IMG/VR virus record: IMGVR_UViG_3300009687_000008
Location: 9,144 to 73,143 of that record
Source: a virus
Lineage: Duplodnaviria > Caudoviricetes
Reading direction: 5' to 3' (one strand)
Length of the DNA stretch: 64,000 nt
Under the pieces are notes generated by a model. The model saw nothing but the letters and a program-made list of their open reading frames with translations, did not search any database and was not told the origin of the DNA. The position numbers and the translations under genes are program-made. The first letter of the stretch is position 1, and each line of letters begins with the position of its first letter. This document shows, one piece after another, positions 4,128 through 13,878 of the stretch.

Positions 4128-6503
4128 TTATCTTGAAAGAGTCAAAGAAGAAATGTTATTAACCTTTTCAATTGTTACTACATTAGTAGACCAATCCTTA
4201 ACAAGTGGATTATGTGTGATTAAAAAGATATTATCAAACATTTCAGAACACTTTTGGAAGAAATTACCTACTAGTTCTAAATTCTCATTTGCTACTTTAC
4301 CTAAAACTTCATCAAAAACGATAATATTTGGTTTAGGTAAGGAACTTATTCTAGATAAAACAACTCTTAAAGCTAAAGAACCTAAAGTTTTCTCCAAACC
4401 ACTACCCTCAGTTAACAAATAGTTAATTTTCTGTCCATTTTCATCTTCTTTCTCCAACAAGAAATCAACTTCTTGTTTAGAATTAATATCGACTGTTAAT
4501 CTAAAATTAGCCGAATCAAATAAAAGTCTATCCAATTCTGAATTAAGTAAAGGCATTACATTTTTCATGATTAATTTAGTAATACCATTCTTACCAACCA
4601 TTCTTGTGTATATTTCAAAAATAATCTTAACTTCTTCCTCTATCTTAATTGTTTTAATTAATTCCTTATTCTTGTTAATTGTGTCTTCAGACCTTTCGAT
4701 ATCGAATTTATTACGTTGGATTCTAGCATTTAGTTCGTCTTTCTCCCTATTAAGTCTATCTAACTTAGCGTTATAACCTAATATCTTGGAATCTAAATCT
4801 TTATTCTTCTCAATATTACCAACATTATCTTCATACTTCTTCTTAAGGTCTTTTTTCTCCTTAAGTTGTAGTCTCATATTTTCTATTTCAAGTTCAATCT
4901 TGTCAATCATGATAGATTTTCTATCATATTCATCAACCTTTTCTTTGATTTTATCTAATTTTTCAATTTCAGATTTGGCTTCCTCAATTTCAACGTCTAA
5001 TTCTTTAAGAATTTTATCCCATTCCTCCAAAGCTGTCTTATTTTTAGCAATTTCATCAGAATGATCAACATCTTTTAATGGTTGTTTACATAAAGAACAA
5101 AACTCACCTTCCTCTAAATTTTTAATTAACGACTCAACAGCCTCTTTTTTGATACTTCTATGACTTCTAGCAATGTTTAAATCACTTAATTGTTGTTTCC
5201 ACTCCTTATGTGTTTGAACATCGTATTCAATCTCAGTTAATTTATCAAATTCCTCTTTAAGGATATCGTATTTTTCCTTAGATTTCTTACCTTTTTCAGT
5301 TATAGCCTCAATTTCTCTATCAATATCTTCAGGTCTTAATCTAATAACTTCAGTATCAATTATAATTTTTTGAGACAAAAATGTTTCTTTAATACTGTTT
5401 GCCTCATTTATCTCAACTTTTAAGTCTTCTAACTTACCTTCACAGAAAGAAATATCAGAATTTAAATCATTAATCTTAACAACTAAAGTTTCAATTTCTT
5501 TGGTTAAATCGCCAGAGTTATATTGGTCTGATTTAAGGTTTTTAGCCCAAGCTGATTTAATTTCCTTAACAATCTCTTCTTTTTGTTCAATAACCTCTAA
5601 CCCAATAAACTTGGAAAGTAGTCTTCCTTTTTGTGTTGGTAGTGTGTGGATTAATTCTTCTAAATTATCGGATGTGGCAATAATAGTTAATAAGAAATCA
5701 TCAACATCACCGATAGATTTCTTAATAAAATCATCAGTTTCTCTACGTTGTTCACCCTCAAGATTTTGGATCGAACCGTCAGCCATTACCTTTTGGAAGT
5801 TCAAATCTGTTTTAACGTTATAACCTTCTTCACTTTTCTTTTTAGTTCTAGTTAAAATTCTTTCAATGATATAATCACCGCCATCAATGTTAATTTTACC
5901 TTTAACTCTAACAGTGTTTACATCCCTAAATTTGTTAAATACTTGTGCAGCAACCTTTGTTCTTGTTGTTTCATTAAAGAATAAGAACAGTAATAAATCA
6001 ACCGATAAAGCAGTCTTACCACCTTGATTGGCTGGGTTGGAAGAAATAGTTGTAATACCTCTTAAACCATCAAAAGAAAGTTTATTTCCATCACCGTAGG
6101 ATAAGAAGTTATCCCATTCAAGTTCTTTAATATACCAATTACGATAACGATATTCGATATCACGAACTTGTTTTAACTTATCATTAACTTTATCATCAAG
6201 ACGAAGTAACCTATCCCAATCTACCTCAATTTTATTACCATCTAACCATTCTTTGAACAATCTACGTTGGTAATTTGTGTCCATTACATTGTCAGCAATA
6301 GACATTTCAACCTGTCCATGTTCTGTATCGACCTTTTTAGGTTTAAAAATTACTTGGACTTTTTCTACAGAGTATTTCTGTGCAATATACTGTTCAATTC
6401 TTTTAACCCTATCTTTAGTATAGTTTTCAGGTGCATCTTCCCATACAACACGAACATGTGCTTTAGGTGGTATTATTACTTTTTGTTTTTCTTTAGTTGC
6501 CAT
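4128..6503 (-). CDS. sbcC: SbcC/Rad50/gp46-like ATPase with ~120 aa N-terminal extension
   Basis: IKELEWDNFLSY start of the ATPase lobe, Walker A NQGGKT, long coiled coil with CxxC hook (CSLCK), signature-like GSGLEK, Walker B IIVFDE, H-loop LITHN. Confidence 0.9.
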   Translation of the reverse strand: MATKEKQKVIIPPKAHVRVVWEDAPENYTKDRVKRIEQYIAQKYSVEKVQVIFKPKKVDTEHGQVEMSIADNVMDTNYQRRLFKEWLDGNKIEVDWDRLLRLDDKVNDKLKQVRDIEYRYRNWYIKELEWDNFLSYGDGNKLSFDGLRGITTISSNPANQGGKTALSVDLLLFLFFNETTRTKVAAQVFNKFRDVNTVRVKGKINIDGGDYIIERILTRTKKKSEEGYNVKTDLNFQKVMADGSIQNLEGEQRRETDDFIKKSIGDVDDFLLTIIATSDNLEELIHTLPTQKGRLLSKFIGLEVIEQKEEIVKEIKSAWAKNLKSDQYNSGDLTKEIETLVVKINDLNSDISFCEGKLEDLKVEINEANSIKETFLSQKIIIDTEVIRLRPEDIDREIEAITEKGKKSKEKYDILKEEFDKLTEIEYDVQTHKEWKQQLSDLNIARSHRSIKKEAVESLIKNLEEGEFCSLCKQPLKDVDHSDEIAKNKTALEEWDKILKELDVEIEEAKSEIEKLDKIKEKVDEYDRKSIMIDKIELEIENMRLQLKEKKDLKKKYEDNVGNIEKNKDLDSKILGYNAKLDRLNREKDELNARIQRNKFDIERSEDTINKNKELIKTIKIEEEVKIIFEIYTRMVGKNGITKLIMKNVMPLLNSELDRLLFDSANFRLTVDINSKQEVDFLLEKEDENGQKINYLLTEGSGLEKTLGSLALRVVLSRISSLPKPNIIVFDEVLGKVANENLELVGNFFQKCSEMFDNIFLITHNPLVKDWSTNVVTIEKVNNISSLTLSR

Positions 6504-7021
6504 TACTCTCCGTATAAATCTTTATCTTTCTTTTCTTGTGGAACCCATTTAATCACATCCTTAGGTTTATCACCAAAGGGGTTTGATGTGTCTATTCTAG
6601 GTTTATTACGATTCTTTTCAATCTCTAATAAATCCTCTAATCTTTGTATTTTTTGGTACAACTTACCAAGTTCACTTCCTGAAGTTTTTTCTTTCTCTAA
6701 TTTAAGTTCTTTCTCTAGTGTTTCTAGTTTTACTAATAATTCTTTAACTTGTGAATCGTCAGTAATAACTTTCTCAACAATCTTTTCAACAGGAACTTCT
6801 ACTACTTTCTCAACAATCTTTTCAACAGGAACTTCTACTACTTTCTCAACAATCTTTTCAATTTCTTTTTCAATAACTTGAGGCATGATTGGTGATGTAC
6901 CATATTTTTCAACATTAAAACCTTGTTTAACCATATTAAGTATAAATTGGTCTACATTGGTTATACTGTTCAATCTACAATAATCCCATATTTCGTTTTG
7001 TATATCCTTTGGTAATTCCAT
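6503..7021 (-). CDS. Hypothetical protein with EKIVEKVVEVPV repeats and coiled coil
   Basis: 172 aa ORF. The repeat is visible in both protein and DNA. Confidence 0.7.
   Translation of the reverse strand: MELPKDIQNEIWDYCRLNSITNVDQFILNMVKQGFNVEKYGTSPIMPQVIEKEIEKIVEKVVEVPVEKIVEKVVEVPVEKIVEKVITDDSQVKELLVKLETLEKELKLEKEKTSGSELGKLYQKIQRLEDLLEIEKNRNKPRIDTSNPFGDKPKDVIKWVPQEKKDKDLYGE
6768..6861. repeat. 36-bp in-frame tandem repeat, about 2.6 copies
   Basis: The unit ACTTTCTCAACAATCTTTTCAACAGGAACTTCTACT occurs at 6768 and 6804, with a partial copy at 6840. Confidence 0.95.
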
Positions 7022-7242
7022 TAAACTAACCTTTCTGACTCTGTTTCAATATCCTCAATTGATTTTATTTTAAAAGTGTAAAAGCCGTAGTCACTTTCAA
7101 TCTTTTTCAATTCATGTTTTCTTGTTGGAATATCCCAAATAACATAACCATGATTGTAAGGGTCTTCACCGAAGTCTTGTTGAATCATTGATGAAGGCAT
7201 TACAATTGGTGTTTTACGACAAATTTTAATTTTTTTACTCAT
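7021..7242 (-). CDS. SbcD/Mre11 internal fragment (last phosphoesterase motif region)
   Basis: IVMPSSMIQQDFGE...HGYVIWDI resembles the Y-x-GS-x-x-Q-x-x-FGE...GY motif that follows GDIH in SbcD/gp47 nucleases. Confidence 0.7.
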   Translation of the reverse strand: MSKKIKICRKTPIVMPSSMIQQDFGEDPYNHGYVIWDIPTRKHELKKIESDYGFYTFKIKSIEDIETESERLV

Positions 7243-7269: not shown

Positions 7270-7503
7270 TTAATTAATGAATTCAAACTCTTCTTCTCTT
7301 AACCTTAATTGTCTTCCTTCATCAGTTTCTACCCATTTAAAACCAGAACCAGAATCAAAATAATAATAAGCTAAAACACCTTTCAAATTATCATAATCGG
7401 TTATAATTTTAATACGTTTTTTCATTTTATATTGTGGTCTGTAATTCACTGAAACAACTTCCCAACCATTAGGTGTTATATCCCCTTCTTTATAATCTTT
7501 CAT
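7270..7503 (-). CDS. Hypothetical protein
   Basis: 77 aa ORF coupled by overlap to the upstream endonuclease. Confidence 0.55.
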   Translation of the reverse strand: MKDYKEGDITPNGWEVVSVNYRPQYKMKKRIKIITDYDNLKGVLAYYYFDSGSGFKWVETDEGRQLRLREEEFEFIN

Positions 7504-8339
7504 ATTATTAATTTTTTGTATCTATCATAATTTTTCATAAAGTTAATTACATGTTTAATATTGTTGTTATCACAAAATATTTTACATTGTTTGTGTTTTA
7601 ATAAAAAAATTTCCTCGTCTTCTATGAAACCTTTTACTTCCTCTATGACTTTATCACCGTTTCTATATTCTATGTAAAAATCAGGTACATATCGTTTTGT
7701 TTTACCGTTATGTTCATATTTTATAATAAAACCATGTTTTTTAGTCCAATAAATAACATTTTCGTCACCATCTAATTCAATCATTCTTTGTTTTTCCCAA
7801 GATGAATGATATTGTTCGTCTACCTTATTTTTATTATTAAAATAATACCCTCTTTCACAATTACCGTATGTATTATGATTACCACCAAGTATTCTATTAA
7901 CATTGGCTATAGAAATCTTTTCCCTACCTTCATCACTCATCATAGGGTAATGTCCGTTCTTTAGTTTATAATTTTCCCTACCTAATTGATTTTTAATTTT
8001 TCTATCCTCGCTAGACCAATGGTTTTTGACAGTCTCACTTATTTTTTTCTTTCTTTCATCACTGTGTTTACCCCAAGAATTTTTTCTACCGTAATTACCG
8101 TTGTTTTCACCTAATTGTGTGTATTTTTGCCAATCTGCTTGACACTCCCTCGAACAAAACCTTTTTTCTCTTGTTGAATTTTTTACATATGTTACTGTAT
8201 TGGTGCACCCAGTGTATTCACATTTTCTTATATCTCTCTCTAATTTTTTTATAGATTGTGCACATATTTTACCACAAAATCTTCTTTCTTTATGGTAGGT
8301 TTTAAATTCTTTTTGACATATTTCACATGTTTTTATCAT
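7500..8339 (-). CDS. Putative free-standing homing-type endonuclease: Zn-finger repeats, NUMOD3-like helices, TnsA-like PD-(D/E)xK domain
   Basis: CEIC...RFCGKIC and CEYTGC...FCSREC; HSDERKKKISE and MSDEGREKIS; SSWE...YVPDFYIEY...EEVKG. Confidence 0.75.
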   Translation of the reverse strand: MIKTCEICQKEFKTYHKERRFCGKICAQSIKKLERDIRKCEYTGCTNTVTYVKNSTREKRFCSRECQADWQKYTQLGENNGNYGRKNSWGKHSDERKKKISETVKNHWSSEDRKIKNQLGRENYKLKNGHYPMMSDEGREKISIANVNRILGGNHNTYGNCERGYYFNNKNKVDEQYHSSWEKQRMIELDGDENVIYWTKKHGFIIKYEHNGKTKRYVPDFYIEYRNGDKVIEEVKGFIEDEEIFLLKHKQCKIFCDNNNIKHVINFMKNYDRYKKLII

Positions 8340-8382: not shown

Positions 8383-9045
8383 TTAATCACAAAGAACCCA
8401 ACCGTTATGTAAATAATGACTTAACATAGATTCATCAATTTCTCTTTCTTGTGTTAAATAAGTACAACTATATTTGTGGATATCACCACACATAACCAAA
8501 TCACAACCTTCGAATATGGATATGTCTTTACCATCTTCAAACTCAAATCCAACAGCCGTTTTAAGACCAATTAAAGGATCGTGATACAAACCAATATAAG
8601 ATACTTCTTCACCGTATAATTCTCTTGCCTCTTCTATATTAGGTCTCTCAGAACCTTCCATATGTCCGTATACACACCAAACCACATTTTCATCTTTATA
8701 TGTTCCTGTGTGTTTTAAAAACATTATATTAGGATTATCCATAGTAGAAATGATGGGTGTTAAAGCATCCATTCTATCCAAATTGTTAGCCAAGAAATCG
8801 TGATTACCCAACGTAATAATAGTCTTTGCTATCTTAGAACATTTATTTAAAAAAGTGGTAACCATATAGATAAGTTCGGGTGTCATTTGATTCTTAGAAT
8901 GAACCAAATCACCTACAATAACAATTCTATCAGGTTTCAATTCCTCACATTCTTTGTAAAACTTCTCAAACTGTTCTGTATATTCTTCATGTCTTTTAAA
9001 AAGACGTAAGTGGATGTCTGCTGTATGTACTACTTTATTAATCAT
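8383..9045 (-). CDS. sbcD: SbcD/Mre11/gp47-like metallophosphoesterase, N-terminal part
   Basis: HTADIH, VGDLVH, GNHD, GLYHDP and CGDIH motifs. The ORF ends about 25 aa after GDIH. Confidence 0.88.
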   Translation of the reverse strand: MINKVVHTADIHLRLFKRHEEYTEQFEKFYKECEELKPDRIVIVGDLVHSKNQMTPELIYMVTTFLNKCSKIAKTIITLGNHDFLANNLDRMDALTPIISTMDNPNIMFLKHTGTYKDENVVWCVYGHMEGSERPNIEEARELYGEEVSYIGLYHDPLIGLKTAVGFEFEDGKDISIFEGCDLVMCGDIHKYSCTYLTQEREIDESMLSHYLHNGWVLCD

Positions 9046-9350
9046 ATAAAACTAAGTTTAGTTATTTTTTCTATCGGTCTAAAGTCTTTGGATTTGAAAA
9101 CATCGGGGAATTGTCTTCTGATTTCCATTCTAACTAATTCTCTAAGTGTTTCAACGTGATGGTCATAAGTTAACCCATAAGCTTGTAAATCATCAGTTAA
9201 CTCTGGTGTTAATTTTATGTTTGTTTTTCTAACACCGTATCTGTCTTGGAACATAACAAATTTCATTGGTACAAAAGTAAAAGCATCATACACAGTTGGT
9301 GATGTGGAAAACCCATATTGAGCGAACTCATTTAAAAACCATTCTTCCAT
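9042..9350 (-). CDS. Small protein with a T4 gp23-like capsid peptide
   Basis: RKTNIKLTPELTDDLQAYG...ETLRELVRMEI resembles the gp23-family RxLKAxW(T/S)xELAQDLxAxH...ELxxILxxEI segment. Confidence 0.55.
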   Translation of the reverse strand: MEEWFLNEFAQYGFSTSPTVYDAFTFVPMKFVMFQDRYGVRKTNIKLTPELTDDLQAYGLTYDHHVETLRELVRMEIRRQFPDVFKSKDFRPIEKITKLSFI

Positions 9351-9351
9351 A

Positions 9352-9825
9352 TTATAATCTATGTTTTTTCATAAATTTTAGTGGTTCAATAGGTCCGTTA
9401 ACTGAATCAACATGGTTATCGTTCCTAAATCTAGGTCCAACCATTTCACTATATACACTAAGTAATTCAGCTTCGACATCTATACTAGCGTAAACATTAA
9501 GGTCAGACCTTAATGCCATAGCATTATCACCGTTCCACCAAGTTTTAAATTCATCTAAAACTCTTAAGGGATTAACACCACCGTGAAAAATGTAACTATC
9601 GTCTTGCCAATTATTTTCACTCTCAACACATATCCTACGTAATAGTGGGAATATTAGTACTTCTATTTGACCATAATCACGTTGATAATTTGGTTGGTCC
9701 TGAATAGTAAGTAGATGTCTAGCTAAAATCTCAAATTTTAAAGCCATACGTGTTTTATGAAAATCACTTAGTTTAACTAAAAGACCAGTTACCTCCCAAT
9801 TACCCACTAATAAATTTAAATCCAT
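9352..9825 (-). CDS. Small protein with a T4 gp23-like capsid peptide
   Basis: LRSDLNVYASIDVEAELLSVYSEMV matches the gp23-family LAQDLxA(Y/V)HxxDAEAELxxILSE motif. Confidence 0.65.
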   Translation of the reverse strand: MDLNLLVGNWEVTGLLVKLSDFHKTRMALKFEILARHLLTIQDQPNYQRDYGQIEVLIFPLLRRICVESENNWQDDSYIFHGGVNPLRVLDEFKTWWNGDNAMALRSDLNVYASIDVEAELLSVYSEMVGPRFRNDNHVDSVNGPIEPLKFMKKHRL

Positions 9826-10772
9826 TATACTTTTTGTTTAATATTATCTAACCTCTTATAAGCCCATCTTTCCTTCCAATGGTTGACCAAAGTGTCAACA
9901 CTTAAATCATATGGTTTAAGTTCTTTATCGATACCTTTTAAGAATTCGGATGTATTCTCACCTCTATCACACCAATAAATCCCTCTACGATTACCGTGGG
10001 TTGTTAAGGTTCTAGCATCAATTCCTAAATAATCACTTGCTTTTCTAATGATATTAATTCTTGAATTTTTACCACTAGTAAACTGACCACCAGGTATTTC
10101 ACCCTCTTCCTCTTCCACCACCAACCTCATCTGTTGATAAAGCCCTTCATCAATTTGAACAGTTCCCTGTCCTTGGGTTAATCCAAGATATTTGAAATGT
10201 TTCAGTCGGTTATACTGTACTCCTCTACCATATAAAGAAGTTACTGTTAAACCAGCCAATTCATCATTATATTTTTCTTTCCAATGGTTAGCAACAACAT
10301 CAGAAGCAGCTAATAGTGTTAATAATTTACCCCCACACATATTATAACCAAAATGTCTTGTTGGTACACAAACCGAAATGTTTGCGATATTACGATTCCT
10401 CAAAACTCTATCATTTTTATCCCAACCAATATGTCTATCTCTAGGTCCTAGAGCTAAAAAATCGGCAGCTATATCCAAAATACCTAAATTCTTTTCATCG
10501 TAAGCATTCTTAACTAAGAAATAATTGTTACGACCTGGACTTCGTCTAAACGGAAAAGAAGATACATGTTCTTCAATACTTTTCCATTCTCTCCATAATT
10601 TACTTGTAGAATCAACAGGTATTAAAATCGGTTGGATATTGTTTGGGTCTTCAACCACACTCTCACCAATCCATATAGGATCATACTTTTTAACCTGTCT
10701 ATCTTTTTGTTCTTCTTGACTTAAAAACTTAAAGTTTAACAAGTCGTGTTTAAGTTGTTCTCTATTTACCAT
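9825..10772 (-). CDS. DruA/DUF4338-family protein (copy 1)
   Basis: PGRNNYFLV...LGPRDRHIGW...VPTRHFGYNMCGGKLLTLLA...TVTSLYG...QYNRL...YLGLTQG. Confidence 0.72.
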   Translation of the reverse strand: MVNREQLKHDLLNFKFLSQEEQKDRQVKKYDPIWIGESVVEDPNNIQPILIPVDSTSKLWREWKSIEEHVSSFPFRRSPGRNNYFLVKNAYDEKNLGILDIAADFLALGPRDRHIGWDKNDRVLRNRNIANISVCVPTRHFGYNMCGGKLLTLLAASDVVANHWKEKYNDELAGLTVTSLYGRGVQYNRLKHFKYLGLTQGQGTVQIDEGLYQQMRLVVEEEEGEIPGGQFTSGKNSRINIIRKASDYLGIDARTLTTHGNRRGIYWCDRGENTSEFLKGIDKELKPYDLSVDTLVNHWKERWAYKRLDNIKQKV

Positions 10773-11418
10773 TTAAAAAATTATGTGGTTTTAAAAATTT
10801 AGTTAACCAATTTTCTTTCAATCCTCTTATTGGAAATCCGTGACCCGTCATAAAGTCTACCCAACTATCCAAAACTTCTCGTCTAATATAGGCATCAAAA
10901 CCGTATTGCTCTTGAATTCGACTCTCTGTCCAAGGATTATGAAAGTGAATTGTATGGTTATTATCTCGACACCATTCAATTAACCTTAGAGTTACATCCG
11001 TATTACCGTTTGGTGTTGTACAATAATAAGCGTTTAGAGGTAACCCATAGTAAGATGGATATCTGTAAGTTGTTGAATCAAAGAAGTCAGAAGGAAAATA
11101 ACCAAACTCATCTAAAAACCAAAAATCGGGGTCCATTTGACCTCTATTTAATTTAAGTGAATGACGTAAACTAATTCTAGACATGTAGACGTTATCTACC
11201 ATTCTATAAATTAGTTCGTCAGGCCACTCTAAACCGTATTCTAAAGAACAATTTAAGGCAAGTTTTTCCCTAATCATTCTTTGAATATTTTTTGTACAAC
11301 CAGTGTGAAGTCCAACAACAGCTATCTTGTGCTCGGTATTGTTACGTAAATAATCTACCGCGGCATTGACAAGTCTTGTTGTTTTACCTGATTGTCGTGG
11401 AGAAATTTCTACATACAT
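10762..11418 (-). CDS. Terminase-large-subunit-like ATPase domain only (no nuclease domain)
   Basis: Walker A SPRQSGKTT, Walker B FLDEF, motif III TTPNG (compare T4 gp17 RQxGKT/DE/STPNG). Only 218 aa. Confidence 0.65.
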   Translation of the reverse strand: MYVEISPRQSGKTTRLVNAAVDYLRNNTEHKIAVVGLHTGCTKNIQRMIREKLALNCSLEYGLEWPDELIYRMVDNVYMSRISLRHSLKLNRGQMDPDFWFLDEFGYFPSDFFDSTTYRYPSYYGLPLNAYYCTTPNGNTDVTLRLIEWCRDNNHTIHFHNPWTESRIQEQYGFDAYIRREVLDSWVDFMTGHGFPIRGLKENWLTKFLKPHNFLNGK

Positions 11419-11422
11419 GAAA

Positions 11423-11824
11423 TTACTTTGTTACTGCATCACTTATTATCTTCGCCTCTTCGGTAACGTGTTCCCCCATTTTTCTTAAGTTAGAATTAGC
11501 CTTGTCCCAAGCTTGATAAAGGTCCATTGGGAAATCTTTTGATTCTTTAATCATATCCTCAAGAGCCTTTTCTCTTAATTCTTGAATTTCTTTCAATGCA
11601 TCAGCAAGACTTTTATTCTTTTTAAACAACTCATTTTTGTAAGCTCTAAGTTTATCATTCTCTTCAATCCTGTTCATTAATTTCAAAGAGTGAGTTAAGA
11701 AATCTTGATTAGCTTTTTCAACATTTTTTACCACTTGTTTTTGTGTTTCTACAACCACTTCGGTTGTTTGGTCCATTAAGTCTGCTACAGCTCTTAATAG
11801 ATTTGATACTTTTTTGTTATCCAT
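11423..11824 (-). CDS. Hypothetical coiled-coil protein
   Basis: 133 aa, helical and rich in charged residues. Confidence 0.6.
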   Translation of the reverse strand: MDNKKVSNLLRAVADLMDQTTEVVVETQKQVVKNVEKANQDFLTHSLKLMNRIEENDKLRAYKNELFKKNKSLADALKEIQELREKALEDMIKESKDFPMDLYQAWDKANSNLRKMGEHVTEEAKIISDAVTK

Positions 11825-12110
11825 TTTTTATGAATTTATGTTTTGTTATTCTTTTTTTAATATTAAACTCAGGGTATAAAATTTCCTGAATTTCAGGCCT
11901 TTGTACCCATCTTGGCCAAAAATCTTCATCTGTTAGTGTGACATCATACCTCAAATTAATAGTCCCACAAGTTTCACATATATGGTTTTTACAATCATGT
12001 TTAAACATCTTTATTCTGAAAATTTTGTAGTAAATAAATTCTACAACCTTTCCGAGGTATCCAACGTTTTCACCACATTTTTGACAACAATATGAAGGAT
12101 GCTTTCTCAT
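11817..12110 (-). CDS. Hypothetical Cys-rich (Zn-ribbon-like) protein
   Basis: CCQKCG and HDC...CETCG motifs. Confidence 0.55.
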   Translation of the reverse strand: MRKHPSYCCQKCGENVGYLGKVVEFIYYKIFRIKMFKHDCKNHICETCGTINLRYDVTLTDEDFWPRWVQRPEIQEILYPEFNIKKRITKHKFIKNG

Positions 12111-13258
12111 TATCTTACCATATCAACATTACCAGACTCAATTCTCTCTAACGTGTAGATTTCTAAGTCGTTTCTTAATCTACCTTCATTCTTTAATGTC
12201 TCATAACGATTTTGAGCCTTATTCTTCCACCAATCAATCATATGAGTTAAATGGTATCTATCCCAATTATCTCTCTTAACTAAAGGAACTTTACCATCAC
12301 TAGCAATATATTGTGGTACGTTATCATAACCGTAGTTACAATAATAGTATCTCTTTTTAGTTTTAGCCTTCATATGGGTCTTAGTGAATTCACTAAATTC
12401 TTTAAACTTCAAAGGGTTTTGTACCTTTAAATGGTTTTTAAGGATAGAAACCATTTTATTGAATTCTCTCATTTTAGGACCAGAAGGACCTGGGTCTACC
12501 ATAGAACCACCCCATTCAGGTTTACCGTAATGCGGTCTCAAGGCATCTCTAACAGCCATAAAAACATCATCATTAGGGAATAAGAATAAATCAGATTCAG
12601 TCATACTACCATATCTCATAAACGGTTTAAGACCGTCATATTGACTCACACCTTTAATATCACCATAAAGTGAGGTTGTCTCCATAAAGACAGTATCAAT
12701 ACGGTCACCGTATTTATCTTTTAACATTTGACGTGCCTCATGTGAACAACATATTAAAGCTAATAATTTACCACCCAAGTAGTTATACCCAAACGGTTGA
12801 ACGGGAACGATAATCGCTCCATTAATCATGTATTTATTAACTTCGTTTGCTGTAATTTTTAAACCTTGGAATAGGTCGTTACGGGGTTTAATTGATAAAA
12901 CGGGTGAAGCTAGACGAATAAAACCAACATATTTGTTAGTTGTTGTTTCTTTAACCCCAATCATAATTTGTCTACCAATTTGGGATTCTAGGGGTAGGGA
13001 TGTAATAATTTGTGTTGCTGGATTGAATAATTTACCCTCAATAATTTCAATCTCAAACTTCATATCCTTTGGTTCAACACCATAGTCATCGAACATTAGT
13101 TTAGTGTATTTATCGTGGTCAACACCCACTACTTTCTCTTTCTTTCTTTCAAGGAAATAATCCTGAATTGTGTCTAATCCTTCATAAAAACCCATCAACC
13201 TATTTGTTAAATCAAGGGTTTCTTCGGGTGTTAATTTTGTATCGAAAACTTCTGCCAT
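12110..13258 (-). CDS. DruA/DUF4338-family protein (copy 2)
   Basis: IGRQIMIGV...GFIRLASP...IVPVQPFGYNYLGGKLLAL...ETTSLYG...SQYDGL. The likely start is the ATG at 13258 (MAEVFD); the track start at 13303 is upstream. Confidence 0.75.
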   Translation of the reverse strand: MAEVFDTKLTPEETLDLTNRLMGFYEGLDTIQDYFLERKKEKVVGVDHDKYTKLMFDDYGVEPKDMKFEIEIIEGKLFNPATQIITSLPLESQIGRQIMIGVKETTTNKYVGFIRLASPVLSIKPRNDLFQGLKITANEVNKYMINGAIIVPVQPFGYNYLGGKLLALICCSHEARQMLKDKYGDRIDTVFMETTSLYGDIKGVSQYDGLKPFMRYGSMTESDLFLFPNDDVFMAVRDALRPHYGKPEWGGSMVDPGPSGPKMREFNKMVSILKNHLKVQNPLKFKEFSEFTKTHMKAKTKKRYYYCNYGYDNVPQYIASDGKVPLVKRDNWDRYHLTHMIDWWKNKAQNRYETLKNEGRLRNDLEIYTLERIESGNVDMVR

Positions 13259-13282
13259 TTTTGCCAATTTAAATATTATTAT

Positions 13283-13290
13283 TATCTTTG
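13283..13290 (+). promoter_or_regulatory. Bacteroidota sigma-A -7 element TATCTTTG
   Basis: Located 30 nt upstream of the plus-strand ATG at 13321. Confidence 0.45.
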
Positions 13291-13320
13291 TAATGTTAAT
13301 CAAAAAAGGTCAATCAGTAA

Positions 13321-13878
13321 ATGGGACAATCAAGAAATAAAACAGGTGTGGACTTCGAAAAGATGATTTGTGAAACCAAGGGTTGGTCCCACACTCCGGC
13401 ATCACCTAAAATTATATGGACGGGTGTTGGTCGTACCAATTTCGATAAGATTGCCTCTGTTGGATTTGATGCTAGTAAATTTTTACCCACTTCTGAATCT
13501 ACTTTTGAAAAGTTTGACGCTATTACCCCTAACGGTGAGAAGGTTGAACTTAAGAAATATAAAACCTCTAAAGCTAAAAAATGGACTGCTTATTCAGAGC
13601 CCATTTTTAAAGTAGCTTCAAAAAATATGGTTGAACATGTTACCTTACTTTTCGGTAAAGGTAATTTATCTTTAGCTCAAACAAATTACAATAAATTTGT
13701 TTCAGATATGTTCAACTACGTTGGTCAGGATATCTTAGACAATATCACCCGTTCTAATATTGGTATTCAATTAGAAGATGGTTTCGTACCACAATCTAAC
13801 TTGGAATACCGTTGGAGAATTAAAAAGGGTTGGAAGGGTTTTAACCGTCTTTCTATTGAATTCCGTATCAAAGATTAA
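13321..13878 (+). CDS. Putative PD-(D/E)xK restriction-endonuclease-like protein
   Basis: N-terminal GVDFE helix and KFDAITPNGEKVELKK catalytic-like motif. Runs counter to the operon. Confidence 0.5.
   Translation: MGQSRNKTGVDFEKMICETKGWSHTPASPKIIWTGVGRTNFDKIASVGFDASKFLPTSESTFEKFDAITPNGEKVELKKYKTSKAKKWTAYSEPIFKVASKNMVEHVTLLFGKGNLSLAQTNYNKFVSDMFNYVGQDILDNITRSNIGIQLEDGFVPQSNLEYRWRIKKGWKGFNRLSIEFRIKD

Follow-up and report, generated by a model that had tools for sequence, protein, structure and literature searches.

A module of seven genes was analysed in a 64-kb window of viral DNA (positions 9,144 to 73,143 of IMG/VR record IMGVR_UViG_3300009687_000008), which is part of a 73-kb contig. Two of its small proteins derive, by sequence comparison, from the phage major capsid protein gp23, a third is a stand-alone terminase-type ATPase, and these three proteins and a zinc-ribbon protein end in a similar, conserved C-terminal peptide (the tail). 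The source is an uncultured T4-like phage lineage of roughly 320 kb from activated sludge and wastewater. Our preferred reading, held tentatively and at somewhat below even confidence, is that the capsid- and terminase-derived proteins are early-made mimics bearing a lineage-specific docking label for one common partner. Unless stated otherwise, coordinates are positions in the window.

Capsid-derived and terminase-type proteins with a common tail

Neither gp23 nor the large terminase TerL is encoded in the 73-kb contig (the whole contig was checked). As the contig lacks head genes, gp23 was taken from G002, a close relative (317,983 bp, 96% complete, 403 proteins) with a DruA-long protein 91% identical to that of the window. 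G002 holds the full-length capsid and terminase genes (gp23 of 589 aa, TerL of 1052 aa) whose presence elsewhere in the genome the earlier, sequence-only reading of this DNA had asked to see confirmed. Both lie about 150 kb from the module, so that reading was right to place the cluster far from any head or packaging operon. The real TerL gene stands beside the portal gene at 126.5-129.7 kb of G002, and the stand-alone ATPase gene at 295.5 kb.

The small proteins of the window gave no capsid or terminase match in Pfam, PHROGs or PADLOC. Their relationship to gp23 was found with family profiles. With a profile of the 157-aa family (A2, 13 sequences), G002 gp23 ranked first of the 403 proteins (E 8.4e-12, 40 bits): profile positions 6-69 aligned with gp23 25-87, covering the N-terminal propeptide (W-E-x-x-G-[FL]-L motif) and the FPxxRR motif, and positions 102-129 aligned with gp23 370-397, the start of the spine helix (D-x-x-A-F-H-N-I-D-A-E-A-E-L). 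In this family the gp23 motifs and the tail are nearly invariant. A profile of the 102-aa family (A3, 23 sequences), obtained by an independent library search, also placed G002 gp23 first of 403 (E 5.3e-12) and aligned with gp23 541-570 and then 360-402, the order of the segments being permuted. Twenty-seven representatives of the 102-aa family are known, with a conserved tail and an invariant proline; no other Pfam family was matched by as many of the relatives as Gp23 (3 of 23, best E 0.0075).

In the reciprocal search, the G002 gp23 sequence alone was compared with the contig's 75 proteins, and its two best matches were the 157-aa (7.6e-5) and 102-aa (0.0018) proteins. G002 itself encodes a 184-aa mini-gp23 that is 47% identical to residues 351-450 of its own gp23 (E 6e-22), includes a copy of gp23 72-108, matches the PHROG 'major head protein' (1.2e-18) and has YLKPHKF near its end; another propeptide-like protein of G002 measures 205 aa. 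Because the family profiles, the reciprocal search and the G002 mini-gp23 genes agree, the 157-aa and 102-aa proteins are, on their sequences, true descendants of segments of the lineage's own gp23, not as chance likenesses, in keeping with the gp23-like capsid motif that the sequence-only reading had seen in two proteins. The relationship fades with distance: against gp23 of the distant Pelagibacter phage HTVC008M the 157-aa family profile gave only 1.9 bits, with the motifs undetectable.

At 157 and 102 aa, against 589 aa for gp23, both proteins are too short for a complete HK97 fold (A and P domains, E-loop). In the AlphaFold2 (AF2) model of the 157-aa protein (predicted local distance difference test score, pLDDT, 83.6) the helices form a bundle and the tail is disordered; the fold is not that of HK97, and no structural counterpart was found either in the PDB (searched with Foldseek and VIA wide) or in BFVD. 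Of the structure and profile comparisons proposed earlier, that of the ATPase with gp17 was thus positive and that with gp23 was positive by sequence profiles, while the 157-aa model resembled no known fold.

The ATPase belongs to a family of 76 clusters. Across 36 family sequences the N-terminus MYVEISPRQSGKTTRL (Walker A), D103-x-F105 within WFxDEF (Walker B) and a YYCTTP motif are invariant. The family profile matched gp17 of HTVC008M (28 bits, residues 79-183) with the Walker A and B motifs aligned, and Pfam Terminase_6N was matched by 11 of the 36 members (best E 1.7e-7). In the AF2 model (pLDDT 83.9; below 50 at residues 202-213) the best structural match was the ATPase domain of T4 gp17 (residues 155-360; Z 13.0, 175 residues, root-mean-square deviation 3.8), followed by Sf6 gp2 (Z 12.7), the NAT10/Kre33 helicase domain (Z 12.6 and 11.0) and P74-26 TerL (Z 11.9). 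The alignment of the model covers the ATPase domain alone, and what is left of the protein is the disordered tail, so that the C-terminal RNase H-like nuclease domain is lacking and the protein ends at residue 218: a terminase-like ATPase without its nuclease, as had been proposed. Neither the ATPase sequence nor its family profile retrieved anything from the PDB, and no match came up when the ATPase and the 102-aa protein were compared by tblastn with 50,697 cultured phage records.

The basic/aromatic C-terminal peptide that had been noticed on four proteins (the 97-aa zinc ribbon, the ATPase, and the 157-aa and 102-aa proteins) is present and conserved in their orthologues. The four tails (...PIEKITKLSFI, ...PIEPLKFMKKHRL, ...KFLKPHNFLNGK and ...RITKHKFIKNG) have the core hydrophobic-x-K-[H/F/Y/L]-x-[F/L], which a proline often precedes by 6-9 residues. 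Orthologues of all four unrelated families keep the tail although identity in the bodies falls to 30-50%: residues H212 and F214 of the ATPase family show almost no variation, and a zinc-ribbon homologue (locus L004) with a different C-terminal half retains the tail (LKKHSF). Conserved tail positions vary synonymously (CAT/CAC, TTT/TTC, AAA/AAG, AGA/CGT), which argues for selection on the peptide and not on a DNA element. In both AF2 models (157-aa protein and ATPase) the tail is disordered, with pLDDT below 50.

Overlap with the start codon of the next gene accounts for the last NG/K residues alone. A further idea, that the tails are Lys-rich because downstream genes overlap them with A-rich translation-initiation regions, was rejected, as it leaves the conserved His/Phe/Pro pattern and the synonymous variation unexplained.

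Tails are enriched among the C-termini of G002. The pattern derived from the window was matched by 7 of 403 C-termini against about 0.5 expected (scaled from a random-sequence expectation of 0.09 per 75 proteins), and a looser pattern gave 13 near-C-terminal matches against 3.5 expected. With a position-specific scoring matrix (PSSM) built from the 102-aa family alone, eight G002 C-termini scored at least 6 bits, compared with 2.2 shuffled C-termini (maximum 7 in 200 shuffles) and 0.8 interior windows. The additional bearers are small proteins (62-161 aa).

Tail-like ends were also seen in small open reading frames (ORFs) of 66-82 aa between gp47 and gp46 in relatives (L016:9468-9668, L019:8148-8351, L018:8987-9235; ...KMFLTPHNF, ...MFIKQHKIT, ...NILKHNFIK), and an ORF at contig positions 3417-3734, outside the window, fits the tail pattern. 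A separate terminal peptide was noted in G002: 14 of the 403 proteins start with nearly identical 11 residues, M[KR][ND]LI[KR]KILKE (loci L045-L061; for example at 8063, 11853, 80025, 81175, 135696 and 145827). With its final L-x-E, the MKNLIKKILKE form resembles a prohead-protease site or a capsid-targeting leader of T4. No peptide of this type was found in the window's contig, and none of the 14 bearers has the C-terminal tail. The gp32-like single-strand-binding protein of G002 (256829-257662, L058) has an acidic end, ...DDDEMPF, like the partner-docking tail of the bacterial single-strand-binding protein (SSB).

Gene layout, conservation and neighbouring genes

The contig (CheckV completeness 22%) carries the module on the - strand, its seven genes lying head to tail from 13258 to 9042 with overlaps of 1-11 nt or gaps of 1-4 nt; the tight coupling that had been described for these accessory genes therefore holds.

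Features of the module and of the intergenic region next to it, in window coordinates
Feature	Positions	Strand	Description
Divergent intergenic region 5' of DruA-long	13259-13320		TTTG-19 nt-TAATATTTA element on - strand
DruA-long	12110-13258	-	382 aa from conserved ATG; ORF extendable to TTG at 13303
Zinc-ribbon protein	11817-12110	-	97 aa; CxxC...CxxC; tail ...RITKHKFIKNG at ~11820-11858
Helical protein	11423-11824	-	133 aa; coiled-coil-like, tail-less
ATPase	10762-11418	-	218 aa; P-loop protein, stand-alone terminase-type (ASCE)
ATPase, Walker A	11377-11403	-	SPRQSGKTT
ATPase, Walker B	~11104-11124	-	WFxDEF
ATPase, tail	10765-10812	-	disordered; ...KFLKPHNFLNGK
DruA-short	9825-10772	-	315 aa; full-length DruA/DUF4338
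Mini-gp23, 157 aa	9352-9825	-	gp23 segments and tail
157-aa protein, residues 7-66	9628-9807	-	gp23 N-terminal propeptide and FPxxRR N-arm motif
157-aa protein, residues 105-139	9409-9513	-	start of gp23 spine helix (IDVEAEL)
157-aa protein, tail	9355-9396	-	GPIEPLKFMKKHRL
Mini-gp23, permuted, 102 aa	9042-9350	-	gp23 segments and tail
102-aa protein, residues 15-49	9204-9308	-	gp23 C-terminal strand region
102-aa protein, residues 42-81	9108-9227	-	gp23 TPELxxDL strand and spine-helix start
102-aa protein, tail	9045-9089	-	KDFRPIEKITKLSFI

In every locus the module lies between primase, PD-(D/E)XK and thioredoxin genes on one side and gp47/gp46 genes on the other; the 102-aa gene overlaps the start of the gp47/SbcD-like phosphoesterase gene. 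The TTTG-19 nt-TAATATTTA element 5' of DruA-long is putative, and we take it to resemble the Bacteroidota -33/-7 promoter consensus. The module thus lies in a replication and recombination region, which from this operon context and the element is probably an early one.

Co-occurrence in related phages, another check proposed earlier, was observed: over 20 separate loci, from metagenomes and IMG/VR, have the same arrangement, in the order DruA-long, 0-3 small ORFs, ATPase, DruA-short or Mom or nothing, 157-aa type (optional), 102-aa type and gp47. Dozens of contigs, drawn from several studies, preserve intact reading frames for the module genes. Compared with the window proteins, the components differ sharply in amino-acid identity (loci L006, L002 and L008, respectively). 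DruA-long (82%, 90%, 91%), DruA-short (87%, 92%, 86%) and the N-terminal part of gp47 (84%, 44%, 90%) were set beside the ATPase (45%, 78%, 42%), the 157-aa protein (41%, 44%, absent) and the 102-aa protein (53%, absent, 48%). Over 13 loci the mean column identity of DruA-long is 82%, and DruA-short is 85-92% identical among relatives. The 133-aa helical protein is 55-83% identical in L004, L006, L008 and G002, with weak family matches, and the 97-aa zinc-ribbon protein had no family match in Pfam or PHROGs.

Lineage DNA is present in activated-sludge and wastewater runs of eight studies. A Bacteroidota host is suggested, because domains of the type IX secretion system (T9SS) occur in neighbouring genes of relatives, the G+C content is 32% and a Flavobacterium phage is among the nearest capsid relatives.

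Several features of the surrounding genes were recorded. A 185-aa gene of no known family (13321-13878, + strand) diverges from DruA-long, and its position is kept in nearly all related loci (55-95% identity). The gp47/SbcD-like gene is split in the window: its 220-aa N-terminal part (8383-9045) ends early, and its conserved C-terminal end, ...YGFYTFKIKSIEDIETESERLV, is a separate 73-aa ORF (7021-7242). Between the two parts lie a 77-aa ORF and a gene for a TnsA-like endonuclease of 279 aa (7500-8339; Pfam Tn7_TnsA-like_N, 6.8e-7); gp47 is intact, at 262-263 aa, in relatives L008, L017 and L018. An IMG/VR contig nearly identical to the window (L001) has about 870 bp extra between DruA-long and the zinc-ribbon gene (4388-5259), including a duplicate of the last 38 DruA-long codons, which may be a mobile insertion or an assembly variant.

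Candidate functions of the module

The structural premise of mimicry, as put forward in the sequence-only reading, stood up: cut-down capsid- and terminase-type derivatives with a common disordered tail lie among DruA genes. The functions proposed there would be to jam sensors of the Avs, CapRel or Lit type or to hinder competing phages. Under the mimic reading preferred here, a single common partner would recognise the tail as a docking label peculiar to the lineage, and the bodies would be molecular mimics, produced along with the replication genes and before the real virion proteins. They would engage the binders of those virion proteins, be these host sensors, chaperones or assembly machinery. 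It is established that the major capsid protein (MCP) and the terminase can trigger sensors in bacteria, Avs7 and Dsr1 both sensing the MCP (PMC13581612). The rapid divergence of the small proteins beside slowly evolving neighbours fits an arms-race role, as does the probable early-region context. No description of capsid- or terminase-fragment decoys, or of virion-fragment proteins with a shared C-terminal peptide, was found in the literature searched.

Several observations weigh against this reading. The ATPase keeps Walker A, Walker B and C-motif invariant, and for these a passive decoy would have no use. No match was obtained between the ATPase profile and the TerL of G002, so the ATPase is not a recent copy of the lineage's TerL; in that TerL (126549-129707, L051) the Walker A is deviant (KPRQAGVST, valine standing in place of the T4-type lysine), and about 450 aa are inserted between its two gp17-aligned halves. 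Tail-less stand-alone ATPase relatives of 140-210 aa occur in unrelated phages with no DruA neighbour (L029-L032, L034-L036, L039 and L040). These have in common the N-terminus M-Y-x-E-I-S-x-R-Q-[ST]-G-K-T-T-R-L, their neighbours include genes for DNA polymerase B, phosphoribosyl pyrophosphate (PRPP) synthetase, glycosyltransferases and P2-like small-terminase and tail-completion proteins, and several end at an L-G-E/N-F motif that we take to resemble a motif near the end of the TerL ATPase domain. In addition, most of the further tail bearers in G002 have no detectable virion-protein parent, Mom replaces DruA-short in some relatives, which suggests an enzymatic role of the ATPase/GNAT core, and the early timing is inferred from gene context and a single promoter-like motif.

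A bolder form of the mimic reading, to which we give very little weight, would make the module a counter-defence of early, variable baits and a constant peptide that recruits an enzyme against host sensors. The baits would reproduce the very surfaces of capsid and terminase to which host immune sensors respond, the constant C-terminal peptide would bring a conserved enzyme (such as a host protease or the neighbouring DruA-type acetyltransferases) to any protein bound to the bait, and the sensors would be modified or destroyed before the real virion proteins appear.

If mimicry proved true, large phages would keep a toolkit of small copies of their most conserved virion proteins, addressed by a lineage-specific peptide, and the copied proteins would be those that bacterial immunity has evolved to sense. 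This would be a general, so far undescribed layer of phage-host conflict or assembly control, with a gene-finding rule attached: a virion-protein fragment plus a shared terminal peptide. The function of phage DruA-like proteins also becomes a concrete question, that of a fixed module with an ATPase.

The strongest rival is an enzyme module, which we regard as possible though rather unlikely: the terminase/NAT10-like ATPase and DruA (or Mom) would form an ATP-dependent acyltransferase acting on phage DNA or RNA, like a split TmcA/NAT10 or of the Mom type, and the mini-gp23 genes would be unrelated passengers of a hyperplastic region. For the ATPase/DruA core this is compatible with a mimic reading of the mini-gp23 proteins. 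The DruA/DUF4338 genes that had been described as interleaved with and flanking the cluster were confirmed: DruA-short matches Pfam PF14236 at 1.5e-31 (110 bits; profile positions 19-297 of 297) and the PADLOC DruA model at 4.3e-28, and DruA-long matches PF14236 at 7.4e-15 (55 bits; the cut-off being 27 bits for both) and phrog_19197 at 1.3e-88. DUF4338 has been termed a GNAT domain (PMC10853773). In gene order the ATPase invariably comes after DruA-long; the slot behind it is taken by DruA-short or, in eight fetched loci (L010 and L019-L024 among them), by a Pfam Mom protein (4e-54), and an N6/N4 DNA methylase is encoded in the same region of L002. The catalytic motifs of the ATPase are invariant, its best NAT10 Z score lies less than 1 below its best terminase Z score, and its atlas neighbours are a mix of Terminase_6N and NAT10_TcmA_helicase.

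DruA-long homologues also occur in the replication modules of cultured Kyanoviridae, adjoining DNA polymerase or clamp-loader genes, and one record labels its homologue 'methylcarbamoylase mom'; DruA-long is 32-38% identical to proteins of S-T4, S-PRM1 and HTVC008M. These cultured phages, however, carry DruA-long without this ATPase, and the ATPase family occurs elsewhere without any GNAT neighbour. Nor does an acyltransferase explain the shared tail and the capsid-derived proteins. Pfam Mom (PF25680) had no match among the window proteins, GNAT_acetyltr_2, DUF1726 and the tRNA-binding domain had none in the seven module proteins at E up to 1, so that the separate DruA proteins would have to supply the GNAT part, and hhalign of DruA against Mom gave no signal, the alignments being shallow.

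A role in head assembly, as accessory or cargo proteins, is distinctly unlikely. Here the propeptide and spine-helix pieces of the mini-gp23 proteins would co-assemble with the scaffolding core or the shell, like T4 gp67/gp68 or internal proteins, and the tail would be a scaffold-like signal for capsid binding or packaging. The 157-aa protein does retain the gp23 N-terminal propeptide region, which in T4 is removed by the prohead protease, and T4 packages small core and internal proteins, some of them active in the next host (PMC9958956). In G002, an acidic 493-aa scaffold candidate encoded 5' of gp23 ends in ...PEIEKMKKLWGY, by eye like PIEKITKLSFI; its C-terminus nevertheless ranks only 194 of 403 with the tail PSSM, and no homologues of it were found in three other records. 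Against assembly there is also the position of the genes, about 150 kb from the head genes and in a replication-gene operon. The window shows no enrichment of the TATAAATA late-promoter motif, no copy of which stands 5' of the cluster, and the MKNLIKKILKE peptide of G002, whose bearers lack the tail, is the better candidate for a T4-type capsid-targeting leader.

It is quite improbable that the tail has no common protein partner and instead marks many short-lived early proteins for turnover, as a C-terminal degron recognised by a host protease, or gives them a basic/aromatic end that binds nucleic acid or membrane, with the capsid-like segments as reused modules and no mimicry. Basic, hydrophobic C-terminal degrons are known, the MuA-type ClpX signal being one. 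The tail likewise is basic, hydrophobic and disordered, sits at the C-terminus or a few residues before it, and is found on unrelated small proteins across G002. Set against this, several tails are followed by up to 14 residues, and the conserved proline 6-9 residues upstream and the fixed spacing over about 10-13 residues suggest a specific docking surface.

Chance likeness or recombination debris without function is hardly credible: the motifs are short and the comparison with HTVC008M gp23 gave nothing, but the significant profile matches to the lineage's gp23, intact ORFs, confident AF2 folds and synonymous variation in the tail stand against it, and the conservation data largely rule it out.

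Comparison with known systems

Parts of the module have counterparts in known systems; the combination of virion-protein fragments with a shared C-terminal peptide is absent from the closest of them. The ATPase has the additional-strand catalytic-E (ASCE) fold of T4 gp17 and of the NAT10/TmcA helicase domain, with the same Walker A (RQxGKT), Walker B (DEF) and TT(P) C-motif. It differs from gp17 in having no nuclease domain, no TerS or portal neighbour and a place outside the packaging and head block, and in bearing the lineage tail; unlike in NAT10/TmcA, its gene is not fused to a GNAT domain.

Druantia type I has the DruA (DUF4338) domain in common with the window. Of its helicase there is no sign here: MZB (PF09369), the zinc-binding domain chosen as marker for the DruE-type helicase of the YprA family, had no match in the contig or in G002 (DruB-D were not searched for), and the neighbours in the window are phage replication genes. 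On that evidence the locus does not appear to be a complete Druantia system, because no MZB match was obtained. Stand-alone DruA-like proteins of Synechococcus phages, of the same phage family as DruA-long (phrog_19197), have already been noted (Phold preprint, 10.1101/2025.08.05.668817); here, by comparison, two paralogues frame an ATPase and tagged mini-proteins.

GNAT anti-CRISPRs of the AcrVA5 type acetylate Cas12a (PMC13728456), a case of a phage GNAT enzyme directed at a host immune protein and a precedent for the speculative idea of a bait combined with an acetyltransferase. The DruA proteins have no sequence relation to AcrVA5; the likeness is by analogy, and an action of DruA on proteins would be speculative.

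The Gol peptide of T4 gp23, with Lit, is a capsid-derived immune trigger. Host sensors read short MCP regions, and the mini-proteins retain conserved gp23 regions; the 184-aa form of G002 retains the region aligned with the T4 Gol segment. The MCP is also sensed by CapRel (PMC13728456). The known triggers of this kind are full-length capsid proteins, unlike the mini-proteins of the window, and no phage-encoded capsid-fragment antagonist was found described in the papers searched.

For the tail, two likenesses are closest. The gp43, gp33 and gp55 proteins of the T4 family carry C-terminal sliding-clamp-binding tails, in which unrelated proteins likewise end in a short disordered peptide; these dock to one hub. 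Clamp tails are hydrophobic and acidic (the HTVC008M polymerase ends in ...NLEDFF), and the DNA polymerase of G002 does not carry the C-terminal tail of the module. The T4 capsid-targeting sequence (CTS) is found on the internal proteins IPI-III and Alt and on the small core proteins gp67/gp68 (PMC9958956). It is N-terminal, about 10 residues long and ends at an L/I-x-E protease site, whereas the tail of the window is C-terminal and basic/aromatic, has no L-x-E site and lies on genes of a replication-gene operon. What the two have in common is a short terminal peptide that would act, as the CTS does, as an address label on unrelated small phage proteins, and some of the proteins labelled in T4 counter host defence.

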